The notes beneath the pieces were generated by a model. That model saw only the letters and a program-made list of their open reading frames with translations, did no database searches and had not been told where the DNA came from. From Opitutales bacterium (GTDB lineage Bacteria; Verrucomicrobiota; Verrucomicrobiia; Opitutales; JABSRG01), in the NCBI GenBank assembly GCA_049599475.1, contig JBMYOQ010000016.1:1-64000 (forward strand): a stretch of DNA of 64,000 nucleotides, read 5' to 3'. Shown one piece after another: positions 54,866 through 61,029 of this stretch. The stretch's first letter is position 1, and each line of letters begins with the position of its first letter. Made by a program: the position numbers and the translations under genes.

Positions 54866-57427
54866 TCAGCCCTTCACCACGCAGAAATCGAGCATGTGAT
54901 CGCGCTGGAGATACTTTTGGGCGTAATCCACGAGATCGGATGGACTCAGTTTTTGCAGGCGCTCATCGAAGCGAAAGGTATGCTCTAGAGGCTGCCCATA
55001 CAGGAGAGAAATACCGACTTGGAGGCTGCGCATTTCTGGACGCTGCATACTCATCTGATGCTGAGCTCTGAGCTGGGTGACCGCTCGGGCGACCTCTTCG
55101 TCCGAGATTTTGCCGTCTTGAATCCGCGCTATTTCGGCGTCGTATTCTGCGTACACGGCCTCGGCTTGGTCCGGATGGGTGCCTGCATAGAATTGAAAGG
55201 CCCCATACTCTGCCGAAGGCAAACGTGTGCTTCCGACAAAATACGCCATTCCTTTTTCCTCGCGCACACGCTGAAATAGAGGGCTCGACATCCCGCTGAG
55301 GAGTCCATTCAGCGCAATGCCTGCATCATTATCCTCAGATAAAAACCCTGCATCATGAAACATTCGAAGCACCACAGCTTGCTGACGATCCAGGTGATAA
55401 TCGATGCGAGCATCCCCAGCGTATAGACTCGGTTGACTCGAGCTACTCAACGAAGTCCCTGGCACCAGCCCCGAAAATGCCGAGGCAAACTTGGCATGAT
55501 CTTCATCTGGGTTTACATCGCCCGCGACTAAGAGCACGCAGTTAGCCGCGTTCAGGAAATTGGCTTGGTATTCGACGAGAGTTGCGCGATCCAGCGAGGC
55601 TAAATCGTCTACCGTGCCTAATGGCGAACGCCCGAAAGGATGTTCCCCGTAGAACGTCCGCCGCGCCGCATTTCGGCCATGCGATACCACGTCATCTAAA
55701 GTCTCCTTCACCCGAGCGATCTGCGCAGTGCGCTCGCGCTCGAAGGTCTCCTCACGGAAGGCTGGTGCCACAACAGCCTGAGAAAATATATCGAGTGAGA
55801 GGTCCAAATCGCTCGATAAGGATTCGAGCGAGAGTCCAAACGTGTTATTCCCCGTCTGCCCTGAGAAGGAGGCCCCAATGCTATCGATCGTCTTTGCCAC
55901 CTCCGCTGCCGTGCGGCTTTCAGTATCCTTTGTGAGCAGCGTGGCCAAAAGCTGATTGAGCCCAGACGCGCCCACGGGATCCCATATTGGCCCTCCGCGC
56001 CCGAGTAAACGGACCGAAATTGATGGCAAACGGGAATCGGGGAGATAGAGGATGCGCAGCCCATTATCCAAGGTTTCGACCCGGTATTCGGGCACTTTGG
56101 TTTTCGAGACTTTTGCGCTTTCAACGGATGCCGTTTCAACCGCCGCTGCGGCTTTTGGTTCAAGCGTCACAAAGGTTTCACCCTCATTCAAAAGATACTG
56201 CGAGCCCAAGGCTTGGAGCGATTCTGGTGTGACCGCTAAAAGCTGTTCTACGAAGCGCTTCGGGTATTGAAGATCACCCACAACGACCTCTGCAGAGCCC
56301 AGGCGTGAGGCCTGACTGCTCACTGTTTTCAAACTGTTTAATCGAGAATTCAGCATCTGGCGCTTGGCCCGCTCTACCTCTTCTACAGAAATCTGTGTCT
56401 CAAAAAAGCGGCGATATTCATCCCGCACCGCATCCGCGGCCGCATGCACGTTGTGCGGATCAGCCTCCCATGAAATCCAGAAAAGCCCCGAAGTGCCCGG
56501 ATTCCAACAAGAGGCATCGATATCGTGCACCAGCTGAAGCTCCTCACGGATTTTTTTATAGAACACCGAGCTTTCCCCGGCTCCCAAAATAGCTGCTAGG
56601 ACATCCAGGCTAGTGGAATCTGGATGGCTGATAGAGGGCACGCGGTACGCCAATCCCCCTTGAGCGATCTCGATATCAGCGAACTCGCGATGACTCCGAG
56701 CGCTGAATTGATGTTTCTCTTCTTCTAAAAATATATCCTGCGTAAAAGTCCGTTCAAAGCCACCCAAGGTATCTTCAACCGTTTGCCAAAACTCTCCCGG
56801 AGGCACCGCGCCCACCACCACGAGCACCGTGTTATTCGGCGCATAGCGAGACTGATAATACTCCATCAGCGCATCCCGCTCGACGCGTTGAAATAAATTG
56901 CGGTGACCGATGACTGGATAGCGATAGGGATGCGACTGATACGCCGTCTTGAAGATCGCTTGAGAGAATCGGCTATGTGGATCATCCAGCCCCATGTCGA
57001 TTTCCCGCAGGATCACGTCTTTCTCCCGAGTCACTTCATCGGCTGGCAGCGTAGAGCGGAAAACGATATCGGAGAGTAAGTCGAGCTGCTGAGCAAAGGT
57101 GTCCGCCAAACTATCGATGTAATAGACAGTGCGATCGAAGGTCGTGTAGGCATTGATATAGCCGCCGTTATCATCGACTTCACGGGAGATATCGAGCGCG
57201 CCCCGAGTCGGTGTACCTTTGAACAACAAGTGCTCAAGATAATGGGAAAGCCCGGCTCCGAGCCATGCGCCCTCATGAATACTTCCGGTCTTCACCCACA
57301 GCTGCAGCGATACCACAGGCGCAGCATTGTCCTCGCAGTATACGACCGTGAGTCCGTTATCCAATACCCGCCGCTCCACTTGCTGACGGTTCAATGTCTC
57401 TAAAATTCGATCAGATGCTCCACTCAT
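54866..57427 (-). CDS. M16-family (pitrilysin-like) zinc protease
   Basis: LDNGLTV, GLSHYLEHLLFKGT (HxxEH), NAYTTFDRT; the second half lacks HxxEH; start placed at MSGASD. Confidence 0.93.
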   Translation of the reverse strand: MSGASDRILETLNRQQVERRVLDNGLTVVYCEDNAAPVVSLQLWVKTGSIHEGAWLGAGLSHYLEHLLFKGTPTRGALDISREVDDNGGYINAYTTFDRTVYYIDSLADTFAQQLDLLSDIVFRSTLPADEVTREKDVILREIDMGLDDPHSRFSQAIFKTAYQSHPYRYPVIGHRNLFQRVERDALMEYYQSRYAPNNTVLVVVGAVPPGEFWQTVEDTLGGFERTFTQDIFLEEEKHQFSARSHREFADIEIAQGGLAYRVPSISHPDSTSLDVLAAILGAGESSVFYKKIREELQLVHDIDASCWNPGTSGLFWISWEADPHNVHAAADAVRDEYRRFFETQISVEEVERAKRQMLNSRLNSLKTVSSQASRLGSAEVVVGDLQYPKRFVEQLLAVTPESLQALGSQYLLNEGETFVTLEPKAAAAVETASVESAKVSKTKVPEYRVETLDNGLRILYLPDSRLPSISVRLLGRGGPIWDPVGASGLNQLLATLLTKDTESRTAAEVAKTIDSIGASFSGQTGNNTFGLSLESLSSDLDLSLDIFSQAVVAPAFREETFERERTAQIARVKETLDDVVSHGRNAARRTFYGEHPFGRSPLGTVDDLASLDRATLVEYQANFLNAANCVLLVAGDVNPDEDHAKFASAFSGLVPGTSLSSSSQPSLYAGDARIDYHLDRQQAVVLRMFHDAGFLSEDNDAGIALNGLLSGMSSPLFQRVREEKGMAYFVGSTRLPSAEYGAFQFYAGTHPDQAEAVYAEYDAEIARIQDGKISDEEVARAVTQLRAQHQMSMQRPEMRSLQVGISLLYGQPLEHTFRFDERLQKLSPSDLVDYAQKYLQRDHMLDFCVVKG

Positions 57428-57530
57428 AACGCGCAAAGACTCAGACTTACCACCCACCCACAAAACACAACCTAAACCCAATATTTCACCCTTGTGATCG
57501 AAGCAGTAAACGTAAGTTTGTTCAGAAGAC

Positions 57531-57971
57531 TTATACGCAGATTATGCAGATGGACGCAGATTCAAGCAACAGAGACCCGCAAACCTATTCTATTATCGGA
57601 GCCGCAATGACGGTTCACTCCGAGCTAGGATGCGGCTTTTTGGAGGCTGTCTACCAAAACGCGCTCGCGGTCGAATTCAGAAAACGCGGAATCCCTTTCT
57701 CAAAGGAAGTCAAGATACCCGTCTATTACCAAGGAGAAGACGTTGAAGAATATAAAGCTGACTTTATCTGCTTCAATTCGGTAATCCTTGAGCTAAAGGC
57801 ATTAAAAAAACTTTCTGGCGTCGATGAAGCGCAACTAATGAATTACTTGAAAGCGACCCAGATTCAGCGTGGCCTGCTATTAAATTTCGGATCGACTAGC
57901 CTTGACCACAAACGAGTCATTTTCAGCCACCAAAACAAAAATCTGCGTCCATCTGCATAATCTGCGGATAA
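57531..57971. mobile_element. Inverted-repeat-bounded GxxExxY gene cassette (putative mobile element)
   Basis: 32-bp terminal inverted repeats, 31/32 identical (57531-57562 and 57940-57971). Confidence 0.55.
57544..57960 (+). CDS. GxxExxY protein (PD-(D/E)XK nuclease-like)
   Basis: IIGAAMTVHSELGCGFLEAVYQ, KADFI...VILELKA, QLMNYLK...GLLLNFG. Confidence 0.93.
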   Translation: MQMDADSSNRDPQTYSIIGAAMTVHSELGCGFLEAVYQNALAVEFRKRGIPFSKEVKIPVYYQGEDVEEYKADFICFNSVILELKALKKLSGVDEAQLMNYLKATQIQRGLLLNFGSTSLDHKRVIFSHQNKNLRPSA

Positions 57972-57987
57972 ATACAGAAGCAGCCCC

Positions 57988-59097
57988 ATGAAACGTCTTT
58001 TTCTTATTATCATTCCTGTCCTGATCGCCGTTTTGATTGTTGTGGGGATTCGTACTCGGATACCTTCTGTGGAGGTCGCTTCCGTGGTGAAGGGTCCGGC
58101 CCTTGATGCGGTATCGGGGAATGTCGAGATTCTCCCGGTGCTCGAGACGGTTGTGAAGGCTGAGCGCGGTGGAGTGATCCAATCTGTGGTTACGCTGCCG
58201 ACCGACTCGGTGGTCTCTGTCACCGTCGGCGAAACACTCGCCTCGCTTGACCCGGAACAAATCGAGTCTGAAATCGCCCTAGCGCGCCTACAAGTGGAAG
58301 CTGCAGAAGCGCGCCTAGAGGCCCCGACGGAATACGATCTCCAACGCACCCGCCTGGAAGAAGAGCTGGATTCGCTCACCAATTTACGCACCGCAGGCAG
58401 TGTATCGGAAAACGAAGTGGCACGCACCCGATCGGAAATCGAACGTCTTACCGTATTGGGCCAAGCCGAGCTGGACCGCCGAAAACAAGAGGTCGTATTG
58501 CTAAAAAACCAACTCGAAAAACGCGCGCTGTGGAAACGCCAACACACCATCGTTGCCTCTACACCCGGCAAGCTTAACGAGGTCTATGTCTTCCCCGGCG
58601 ACATCGTCTACACGGGATCGCAAATAGCGAAAATTCACTCACACGAGCTGCTCATCAAAGTGGCTGTCCGCGAAGAAGATTTTATCGGAATCTCGATTGA
58701 TAACGGGGTCCGCGTGCGCTTTCTGGCACACGGCAACCAAGAATTTTCTGGAAAAGTCTCCGGACTTTCGCCCACCGCCGATGCGGACTCCCGACAACGC
58801 GATGTATTTGTAACTCTCGACAACCCGCCCGAAGGGCTCGTATCCGGCATGACAGGACAAGCCGTGATCATCAAAGCGGAACACCAGGACGTGCTTACGA
58901 TTCCACGGCGCGCGCTCGTCGGCAATTATGTTTACCGCGTGAATGGAAACCAAGTACAGGTCCAAGAAGTGAAGACCGGATTCGTCGGACTTGAGGTAGC
59001 CGAGATCGTCTCAGGGCTCAGTGAGGGGGACCGAGTGATCATCGACCGACCTCATCTTTATCGCGAGGGAGAAAAGGTAACGCCCTTCAGCAAATAG
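57988..59097 (+). CDS. Efflux periplasmic adaptor (membrane fusion protein)
   Basis: N-terminal TM, lipoyl-like halves flanking a coiled coil, 'GLVSGMTG', 'IPRRAL', 'GLSEGDRV'. Confidence 0.88.
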   Translation: MKRLFLIIIPVLIAVLIVVGIRTRIPSVEVASVVKGPALDAVSGNVEILPVLETVVKAERGGVIQSVVTLPTDSVVSVTVGETLASLDPEQIESEIALARLQVEAAEARLEAPTEYDLQRTRLEEELDSLTNLRTAGSVSENEVARTRSEIERLTVLGQAELDRRKQEVVLLKNQLEKRALWKRQHTIVASTPGKLNEVYVFPGDIVYTGSQIAKIHSHELLIKVAVREEDFIGISIDNGVRVRFLAHGNQEFSGKVSGLSPTADADSRQRDVFVTLDNPPEGLVSGMTGQAVIIKAEHQDVLTIPRRALVGNYVYRVNGNQVQVQEVKTGFVGLEVAEIVSGLSEGDRVIIDRPHLYREGEKVTPFSK

Positions 59098-59105
59098 CCT
59101 CCTGG

Positions 59106-60347
59106 ATGAATATCTGTCTACAGATAGCATGGCGATTCATCAGTGCTCGCAAGCGCGCGATGGGTATGAGCCTCTTGGGAATTACCTGTGGTGTCGCATT
59201 TTTCATTTTAACCCAAGCGCAGACCGCAGGATTTCAGGGGTTCTTCGTTGAGACGATTCTTGGAACCAATGGAGCTATCCGCATAACGGATCGCTATCAA
59301 GATGCTTTCAAGCCAATGACCCTAGAGACCGCCAACGACGGCGAGAGTACCGTGCGGGTCATGAACGCACGCCCACACGAGGAAGGCGTGGCCTTCCCAT
59401 CTGATATCCGAAATGCTGTCATGGAATTCACCCCAGTGATCGGTGTATCGGAAATCATAGAGCGCAGGGTAGATGCTCGCAGCGGATTCAGGCGACAGGA
59501 TGCCCGGGTCTTTGGAATCCGTGTCGAAGATCACTTACGGGTTTCGATGCTCGAGGACCAAATTGTCATAGGCTCCTTAGAGGCTTTTGCGGCAGATCCG
59601 TTGAGCGTTATGATTGGCAGCAAATTGGCAGGCAGGCTCGAAGTTCAACTCGGCGACTCTATCACTTTGCAACCCATCGGAGATAGCCGTTCTTACACGG
59701 TTTCAGCGATCTTTGAAACCGGAGTCGAAGTCATCGATAAGCAGCGCGTTTACACACATATTTCTGAGGCACGCTCCCTCCTCGAACTCCCGTTTGGTGG
59801 ATCATTTTTGCAGATCGCTATCGACAAGCCTGAGAATGCTCGAGAAATCGCAGACCAGCTCCGCTACACCTTAAACCACGTCGCCATCTCATGGCAGGAG
59901 CGGGAGCAAGCATGGTTAGGTGTTTTCGGAGCCCTACGCTATTCCGCCGCGATCAGCATGTCTGTGATCATCCTGCTCGCCGGTATCGGGATATACAGCG
60001 CGCTCTCTATGCAGGTGGTTGAAAAGGAGAGAGAAATTGCCATTCTCCGGGCAACTGGATTTACCCGCGGAGACATTTCACGCATCTTCATTTCCCAGGG
60101 AGGCATCATCGCCGGTTTTGGCATCATTACAGGATCCCTGATCGGGGCCCTTGCGACTTGGGGAGTCACCCAAATCCCACTACGTGTCCGAGGTATTTTT
60201 GCCACAGACCATTACATCGTAAGTTGGGATTGGACCCACTATGCACTCGCTGCGGCTATCGCGCTCTTCGTGAGTCTAGCCGGCACCTGGTTGCCTGCAA
60301 AACGCGCCGCCAATATCGAACCCGCCGTCGTCATCCGTGGAAACTAG
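59106..60347 (+). CDS. ABC transporter permease (LolC/E-MacB/FtsX family)
   Basis: IAWRF...SLLGITCGVA, EKEREIAILRATG, PAKRAANIEP. Confidence 0.9.
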   Translation: MNICLQIAWRFISARKRAMGMSLLGITCGVAFFILTQAQTAGFQGFFVETILGTNGAIRITDRYQDAFKPMTLETANDGESTVRVMNARPHEEGVAFPSDIRNAVMEFTPVIGVSEIIERRVDARSGFRRQDARVFGIRVEDHLRVSMLEDQIVIGSLEAFAADPLSVMIGSKLAGRLEVQLGDSITLQPIGDSRSYTVSAIFETGVEVIDKQRVYTHISEARSLLELPFGGSFLQIAIDKPENAREIADQLRYTLNHVAISWQEREQAWLGVFGALRYSAAISMSVIILLAGIGIYSALSMQVVEKEREIAILRATGFTRGDISRIFISQGGIIAGFGIITGSLIGALATWGVTQIPLRVRGIFATDHYIVSWDWTHYALAAAIALFVSLAGTWLPAKRAANIEPAVVIRGN

Positions 60348-61029
60348 AGATTCAGATTTGCCCCTCGAAGCGCTCACGGTGCATTGTCACCTGGGAAACG
60401 ATGCTGCGCGCGTACACGCCGTAAAGGGTGTGAACCTACAGTTGAAAAACAAGGAAATGGCAGCTGTTACGGGCCCTTCTGGATGTGGAAAAAGTTCCCT
60501 ACTCTACGCCCTGGGCCTCCTCGATCATATCGACTCTGGAGAAATCAGGATTAACGGCCAAGACACATCCAAGCTGTCCAACGAAGCGCGCACTCAGCTA
60601 CGGATGCTTTCTATCGGATTCGTATTTCAGTTCCACTACCTTATCGGAGAGTTTTCTGCCTTTGAAAATGTCGTCCTCCCAATGAAGAAAGCAGGCATTT
60701 TGAAAAGCAAAGAACAGGAAGAGCGCGCAGGATATCTCCTGGAAAAAGTAGGGCTCGCCGACAAACGCTCACGACCTGGAAACCAACTTTCTGGGGGTGA
60801 ACGACAACGCGTCGCCATCGCTCGCGCCCTGGCGAATTCGCCGAAAGTTATTCTAGCTGACGAACCCACAGGAAACCTTGATCAAGAGAATTCCAACAGA
60901 ATTTTTTCTCTTCTGAGAGAGATTACCGAAACGACCGAATCCTCCGTACTTTTGGTAACACACAATAGCAGCCTCGCGAACCAAGCTGATCGAATCCTCA
61001 CCATGCAGGACGGGGTATTAAGGTCATAA
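60337..61029 (+). CDS. ABC transporter ATP-binding protein (LolD-like)
   Basis: [39 protein letters not shown]. Confidence 0.93.

Follow-up and report, generated by a model that had tools for sequence, protein, structure and literature searches.

A GxxExxY nuclease-like gene between heptamer-repeat arms: one copy of a widespread gene-plus-repeat family

A short GxxExxY gene of an Opitutales bacterium lies between two inverted repeats, and sequence comparison identifies this cassette as one copy of a widespread gene-plus-repeat family. The window analysed is a stretch of 64,000 nucleotides (assembly GCA_049599475.1, contig JBMYOQ010000016.1, positions 1 to 64,000 of the forward strand), and the sequencing run containing this DNA is a seawater metagenome. 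A sequence-only reading of the locus had proposed a minimal unit of gene and repeat that uses a non-classical enzyme. That proposal gains support from a site that is not fixed among relatives, from armed homologues, from covariation of repeat and protein, from copies of the repeat that carry no cargo and from empty alleles.

The two arms occupy positions 57531–57562 (plus strand) and 57940–57971 (minus strand). They are 32 nt long, complementary at 31 of 32 positions (97%) and separated by 377 nt. The 4.68-Mb genome contains only 14 inverted repeats with at least 20 exact base pairs at a separation of 200–1500 bp, the window arms being one of these, so the pair is not due to chance. The enclosed ORF (57544–57960, plus strand) encodes 138 amino acids; its first ATG lies within the left arm and its TAA within the right arm, just as the earlier reading had described. 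Translation more likely starts at the second ATG (57550), because Met is found at that position in seven of the nine clade members that share an arm at the same offset. Each arm had been read as three units with a GCAGAT core. The triad and its spacing of 9 and 10 bp hold, and the unit is refined to a heptamer, CGCAGAT, behind a CC anchor. The left arm has a T-rich lead, a mutated anchor and CGCAGAT-type heptamers at 57536, 57545 and 57555. The lone mismatch between the arms is A57535; it alters the anchor, where 153 of 162 family arms have C. The right arm has the consensus form, and together with flanking bases it shares 39 identical nt with one arm of a contig C7 hairpin of the same genome that encloses no gene.

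The cassette is set between host genes. To its left a divergent M16 family peptidase is encoded on the minus strand (54866–57481), and the 40 nt at 57457–57496 are the presumed divergent promoter region, in which no sigma-70-like site was found on the plus strand. To its right an ABC exporter operon (57988–61029, plus strand) encodes an HlyD-type adaptor, whose gene starts at 57988, an FtsX/LolE-type permease and an ATPase. No Rfam match falls within 57300–58200; the cassette is located between protein genes and not in an rRNA helix. Names used for neighbouring genes outside the window are presumed assignments based on their sequences.

The window protein belongs to TIGR04256 (GxxExxY; 148 bits against a curated cut-off of 35) and PF13366 (142 bits, cut-off 22). 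These were its only domain matches; neither a DDE nor an HUH Y1 transposase domain was among them, in keeping with the earlier suggestion of a PD-(D/E)XK-fold cargo that lacks a classical transposase. A search of the PDB by sequence gave no significant match. The predicted structure (pLDDT 91.9) most closely resembles Cas4 SSO0001 (PDB 4ic1; Z 8.8, rmsd 2.7, 97 aligned residues), followed by lambda exonuclease, nuclease domains of restriction enzymes and Hjc, and the closest of these structures share just 16–17% sequence identity with the protein. Residues E34, D73, E83, K85, Q97 and Y101 are retained in 129–143 of 144 homologues. We take E34, D73, E83-x-K85 and Q97xxxY101 to be the catalytic motifs of a RecB-type active site. 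On the structural model, the protein is thus predicted to be a PD-(D/E)XK nuclease of the Cas4/RecB type with an intact active site. The modelled likeness to Cas4, lambda exonuclease, RecB/AddAB and Hjc would comprise both the fold and the E...D...ExK...QxxxY layout. Cas4 proteins carry a four-cysteine Fe-S cluster. GxxExxY proteins differ from this group in their size of about 130 amino acids and in the lack of a conserved four-cysteine cluster (no conserved cysteine is found among columns kept at 85% of 144 rows), and the window gene has no adjoining CRISPR or helicase partner. The family is very large: a search at E up to 0.001 matched 17,768 clusters (50% identity), and the available text of one source (PMC3424549) gives the function of GxxExxY/PDDEXK_3 as 'Unknown'.

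Arms of this design are a family trait. From order-level relatives and GTDB-wide matches 156 GxxExxY loci were collected, of which 144 were kept; the remaining 12 were partial (six), at contig edges (two), interrupted by stops (two) or duplicates (two). Many were retrieved by likeness to the window protein, and its clade is consequently oversampled among the 144. A three-heptamer arm is present upstream at 76 loci and downstream at 87, and 63 loci have inward-facing arms at both ends, compared with 19, 22 and 9, respectively, in a wrong-strand control and 1 of 400 random windows. GxxExxY genes elsewhere are therefore flanked by inverted repeats as well, a point on which the idea of a mobile unit had been made to depend. 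The other 81 loci lack one or both arms by a scanner that is blind to types without the CC anchor, including two of the window genome's own copies. Heptamer spacing is mostly 9 or 10 bp. Left and right heptamers are the same at 44 of the 63 two-armed loci (shuffled mean 7.7, maximum 16). The window genome contains five GxxExxY genes, every one armed and each with a different arm type; the other four proteins are 39–45% identical to the window protein. At two places, contig C26 of the window genome and locus L032 (contig C66 of the same-genus genome G001), whole hairpins stand in direct duplication around GxxExxY genes, like tandem REPIN arrays.

The type of arm follows the phylogeny of the protein. 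In a quick tree the window protein falls in a clade of 28 rows (SH-aLRT 95) with at least nine phylum labels, and 26 of these rows have C(G/A)CAGAT arms. GxxExxY clades mix phyla, and the window protein is 57–66% identical to CGCAGAT-type proteins of other families and phyla. Arm-type labels change 52 times on the tree, as against at least 70 times when shuffled, and profiles built from arm-labelled groups assigned 35 of 37 left-out proteins to the correct arm group. The covariation of repeat and protein that the earlier reading had put forward for testing is thus present. At the level of single residues, heptamer position 5 is G in 46 of the 47 rows with Thr14 and A in 43 of the 56 rows with another residue there; this link comprises four supported independent pairs, too few for significance. 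A further covariation, between residue 100 and heptamer position 7, was dropped, as it is confined to one clade.

The window site itself is occupied by different cassettes in different genomes. G001 holds, between the same flanks, a GxxExxY gene with CACGAAT arms whose product is only 47–50% identical to the window protein, so the site is not fixed for one gene across relatives. The segment that differs spans 57497–57987. On its left the 40-nt flank is fully identical, and the adjoining M16 and exporter genes are 71–89% identical between the two genomes (88–89% for the peptidase, 71–77% for the exporter genes). A control pair at another site shared by the two genomes (C84/C66) is 73–74% identical, forms sisters in the tree and has the same arm type. 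When scored with the arm-group profiles, the window protein is assigned to CGCAGAT (192.5 versus 147.6 bits) and the G001 protein to CACGAA (163.2 versus 148.1 bits), and residue 14 is Thr in the former and Val in the latter. The two same-site cassettes probably reflect replacement or independent arrival. Divergence in place retains part of the probability, because a sister relationship of the two proteins is compatible with an AU test on 54 rows (p 0.56) and their fourfold-site divergence is saturated; in-place switching is considered the less likely course of events. A one-residue indel was discarded as a clade marker, being not specific to the clade. A search for a third allele found the M16–HlyD adjacency in one other genome of the family and no empty allele; metagenome contigs scanned with the promoter pattern gave no match, and a scan with HlyD gave two distant loci. 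In another relative (G002) a cassette of a third type is located one gene further along in the homologous exporter operon. Upstream of the exporter operon in G003 (L003:900–1200), several degenerate arms of various types occur with no GxxExxY gene. Two further groups of same-site loci (L033, L040 and L190; L186 and L228) encode GxxExxY proteins 32–50% identical beside better-conserved neighbours and may represent additional swaps.

Empty alleles, which had been named as a key observation to seek, were found at loci of relatives. For a Prevotella cassette of the same clade, the gene is missing from the corresponding junction in all of 29 other loci, among the best 30 of 183 matches (28 of the loci cover the junction). 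In Cloacibacterium 14 loci comprise four filled (one shortened), four cleanly empty and six with other DNA, and filled and empty alleles coexist among genomes that are 93–97% alike. At both junctions the insert follows the stop codon of one gene and precedes the start of the next, and no target duplication is seen. A similar junction search in Geobacteraceae matched none of 80 relatives. The empty alleles at the Prevotella junction (L258–L286) often carry other 7–9-nt tandem repeats in the spacer, which suggests a hot spot for repeat families. CAGAAG, which occurs in both window flanks and had been considered as a target duplication, is probably a chance match: flanking direct repeats of at least 6 nt occur at 6 of 61 loci, with 3.7 in shuffled pairings. 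Invertibility had also been raised; no inversion or excision joint was detected in Logan contigs of four runs (three with cover, one possibly the source), a weak test given that contigs drop rare variants. Among 50,697 phage records there is no match, and among 72,556 plasmid records there are eight, mostly to very large replicons. The near-perfect arms had been taken to imply recent activity. Recent multiplication of the whole cassette is not borne out, the other copies in the genome being so divergent. Arm pairs of the same spacing have at most two mismatches in 6 of 52 cases, which makes the window pair unusual, and recent copying of one arm, followed by a change in the left anchor, is the more likely source of the match. 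A classical insertion sequence with terminal inverted repeats was rejected: there is no DDE or recognised transposase and no target duplication, and the paralogues share at most 45% identity with the window protein.

Repeats without cargo are dispersed in the genome. With a looser pattern, the window genome has 119 arms, including 29 inward pairs, of which 24 are short-spacer hairpins, in part carried by another element; a genome-wide count thus bears out the expectation of gene-less copies. Few arms are found deep in open frames: 11 of 119, against 153 of 300 random positions. The CGCAGAT type is represented by 11 arms in the window genome and by two, both degenerate, in G001, which is 86% complete. 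A gene-less CGCAGAT hairpin on contig C7 (84699–84766) contributes the arm that matches the right end of the window cassette; G001 and G003 lack both this hairpin and one on contig C31 at the corresponding sites. Across 61 genomes, at least four arms are found in 29 of 32 with a GxxExxY gene and in 1 of 29 without (Fisher p 7e-13), a p-value that is overstated, given the kinship among the genomes and the lack of both gene and arms in small ones. The commonest hairpins in the window genome and G001, of the CACGAAT type, ride inside a separate MITE-like repeat of 135–175 bp. Their abundance is for that reason not evidence for the GxxExxY enzyme, and no GxxExxY gene with CACGAAT arms was detected in the window genome. 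The MITE-like repeat has terminal inverted repeats, TA flanks and a CACGAAT arm pair at mid-element, and is present in many copies in both genomes (contigs C34, C50, C59, C60, C77, C86 and others of the window genome; loci L131–L159 of G001). At the intergenic site of the C7 hairpin G001 carries a CACGAAT MITE (L252, contig C227), a second case in which arm types differ at one site. Inward arm pairs around 180–230 bp with no recognisable gene, at C17:28848–29127 and C144:194–425 of the window genome, are possible decayed cassettes.

A mechanism that would link these observations is favoured at a little better than an even chance. (i) The small predicted nuclease likely binds to DNA at heptamers of its own type; its N-terminal segment would contact the arm, with Thr14 reading heptamer position 5. 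(ii) The enzyme likely cuts beside the heptamer arrays. (iii) Repair by the host would then place new copies of the arms, of gene-less hairpins and, now and then, of the entire cassette at gene junctions. (iv) With the start codon overlapped by the left arm, binding there would in addition lower expression of the gene itself. To our knowledge, a hydrolase of the PD-(D/E)XK fold is unable to join strands alone, and this is counted against the model. The mirrored arms, the other gene-and-arm pair found at this site in G001 and the dispersed gene-less repeats suggest that the cassette is likely a slow-spreading kind of selfish DNA. The bolder proposition makes GxxExxY the driver of a class of selfish elements not yet described, in which a nuclease with a short N-terminal code for its heptamer cuts at the arm arrays, host repair inserts hairpins and cassettes with neither transposase nor target duplication, and a rival cassette at an occupied site can be displaced; it is put forward tentatively, at clearly less than an even chance.

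Other explanations divide the same evidence differently. Arms and cassette could be passengers, mobilized in trans by another enzyme (a Y1 or IS630-type transposase) or exchanged solely by homologous recombination between conserved flanking genes, with GxxExxY perhaps binding the arms for autoregulation and not driving their spread. The abundant CACGAAT hairpins inside the TA-flanked MITE-like repeat fit this account, as does the presence in the window genome of one IS630-type DDE_3 match (on C133) and 12 Y1_Tnp matches, and allele exchange would give the mixture of filled and empty sites seen among closely similar Cloacibacterium genomes. Against it, 12 of those 13 transposase matches have no heptamer arm within about 1.2 kb, the catalytic residues of GxxExxY are conserved, arms are nearly missing where the gene is missing, and the CGCAGAT hairpins of C7 and C31 have no MITE ends; the passenger account is considered unlikely. 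One Y1 match (C12:8270–8850) lies between 27-bp GTAG-type inverted repeats and is likely an ordinary REPtron. Alternatively, the cassette could be a tiny cut-and-paste transposon, in which GxxExxY is the complete transposase and the arms are terminal inverted repeats that each offer three sites for binding. Inward-facing ends with three sites apiece, precise filled and empty alleles, several unrelated copies per genome and the G002 cassette at a different junction of the same operon are all compatible with this. It is nevertheless given a small probability, target duplications being absent both family-wide and at the clean junctions, near-identical copies being absent from the window genome and matches being lacking among phage records and very rare among plasmid records. 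We also know of no strand-transfer chemistry for the PD-(D/E)XK fold, which is counted against such a transposon.

The arms could instead act in RNA. As an mRNA counterpart of 23S rRNA intervening sequences (IVSs), the arms would be selected to pair in the transcript, to hide the start codon and to be excised by RNase III. The window transcript is indeed predicted to form a long, strong terminal duplex (−150 kcal/mol, z −4.9), the size and stem match the Coxiella 23S IVS (444 nt, 28-bp stem) in the available text of PMC4990558, and the upstream neighbour is co-directional at 51 of 56 callable loci. Family-wide, the arms are patterned like protein-binding sites: heptamers match from arm to arm (0.87–0.96) and spacers poorly (0.44–0.59), mismatches across 63 loci are not enriched for G-U pairs in the sense orientation (74 versus 84, p 0.47), and the start lies within an arm at 19 of 76 loci and the stop at 15 of 87. 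Near-perfect pairing is moreover rare among arm pairs of the same spacing, and the match between arm type and protein is left unexplained. RNA pairing as the selected function, which the earlier reading had offered as an option, is accordingly considered improbable, and RNase III could still cleave the near-perfect window stem as a side effect. Last, the cassette might be an addiction or defence module, in which a toxic nuclease is silenced by its own arms and kept for a selfish or protective effect while the arms diversify in place. The left arm does overlap the start codon of the window gene, cassettes at some sites persist vertically (the C84/C66 sisters), orthoswitches are described for RAYTs in the available part of PMC3686654, and the AU test permits sisterhood of the same-site proteins. 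This account leaves the dispersed gene-less hairpins of cognate type unexplained, there is no partner antitoxin gene between the arms, and clean empty alleles are common; it is ranked as the least probable of the rivals.

Among described systems, REPIN–RAYT partnerships (REPtrons) are the closest in organization. In the available text of the sources (10.1101/2021.07.10.451892, PMC3686654), they too have an enzyme gene between cognate inverted repeats, gene-less inverted pairs scattered intergenically, repeats whose class goes with the clade of the enzyme, syntenic sites with differing repeat classes ('orthoswitch') and a rarity on plasmids and phages. In contrast, as far as that text goes, the RAYT enzyme is an HUH Y1 (IS200-like) transposase and its repeat a palindrome with a GTAG/CGTC tag, whereas GxxExxY has a predicted PD-(D/E)XK Cas4/RecB-type fold and an arm built as a direct heptamer triad with a CC anchor. 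Membership of the REPIN–RAYT class was rejected on these two grounds of enzyme and repeat structure. RAYTs are also described there as single-copy and strictly vertical. The window genome has one GxxExxY gene for each arm type and the C84/C66 pair is vertical, but GxxExxY genes occur in several unrelated copies per genome, their clades contain mixed phyla, and filled and empty alleles coexist. TIRtrons, as far as they are presented in the available text of PMC3733652, likewise place a small gene within non-REP terminal inverted repeats that possibly overlap the gene ends, and their repeats form moderately abundant dispersed families. Their TIRYT enzymes retain the HUH motif and catalytic tyrosine, and the TIR repeats share GGGGWSAS or are unrelated to heptamer triads (PMC3733652, same portion). 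The 23S rRNA IVSs described in PMC4990558, again from part of the text, share a length of about 440 nt and an ORF inside a near-perfect terminal stem of 28–32 bp; they differ in lying in an rRNA helix and encoding an S23p four-helix-bundle protein, in place of a nuclease before an mRNA operon. GxxExxY loci differ further in showing no sign of selection for RNA pairing, and an rRNA intervening sequence was rejected for the window cassette on its position between protein genes and the lack of an Rfam match. By analogy, the GxxExxY system is best read as working like a REPIN–RAYT or TIRtron partnership with a different enzyme fold. No published description of a GxxExxY–repeat partnership was found in a search with most subscription papers and bioRxiv supplements outside its scope.

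A cognate DNA repeat gives this very large protein family a concrete substrate to test. With two proteins and two sets of arms native to a single site, the window locus and its G001 counterpart lend themselves to a specificity swap. Should the nuclease drive the spread of its arms, a family of very small sequence-specific nucleases, diverse in their natural specificities, would become open to study, and RAYT transposases would no longer be the sole origin of REP-like repeat populations but would be joined by a chemically unrelated one.
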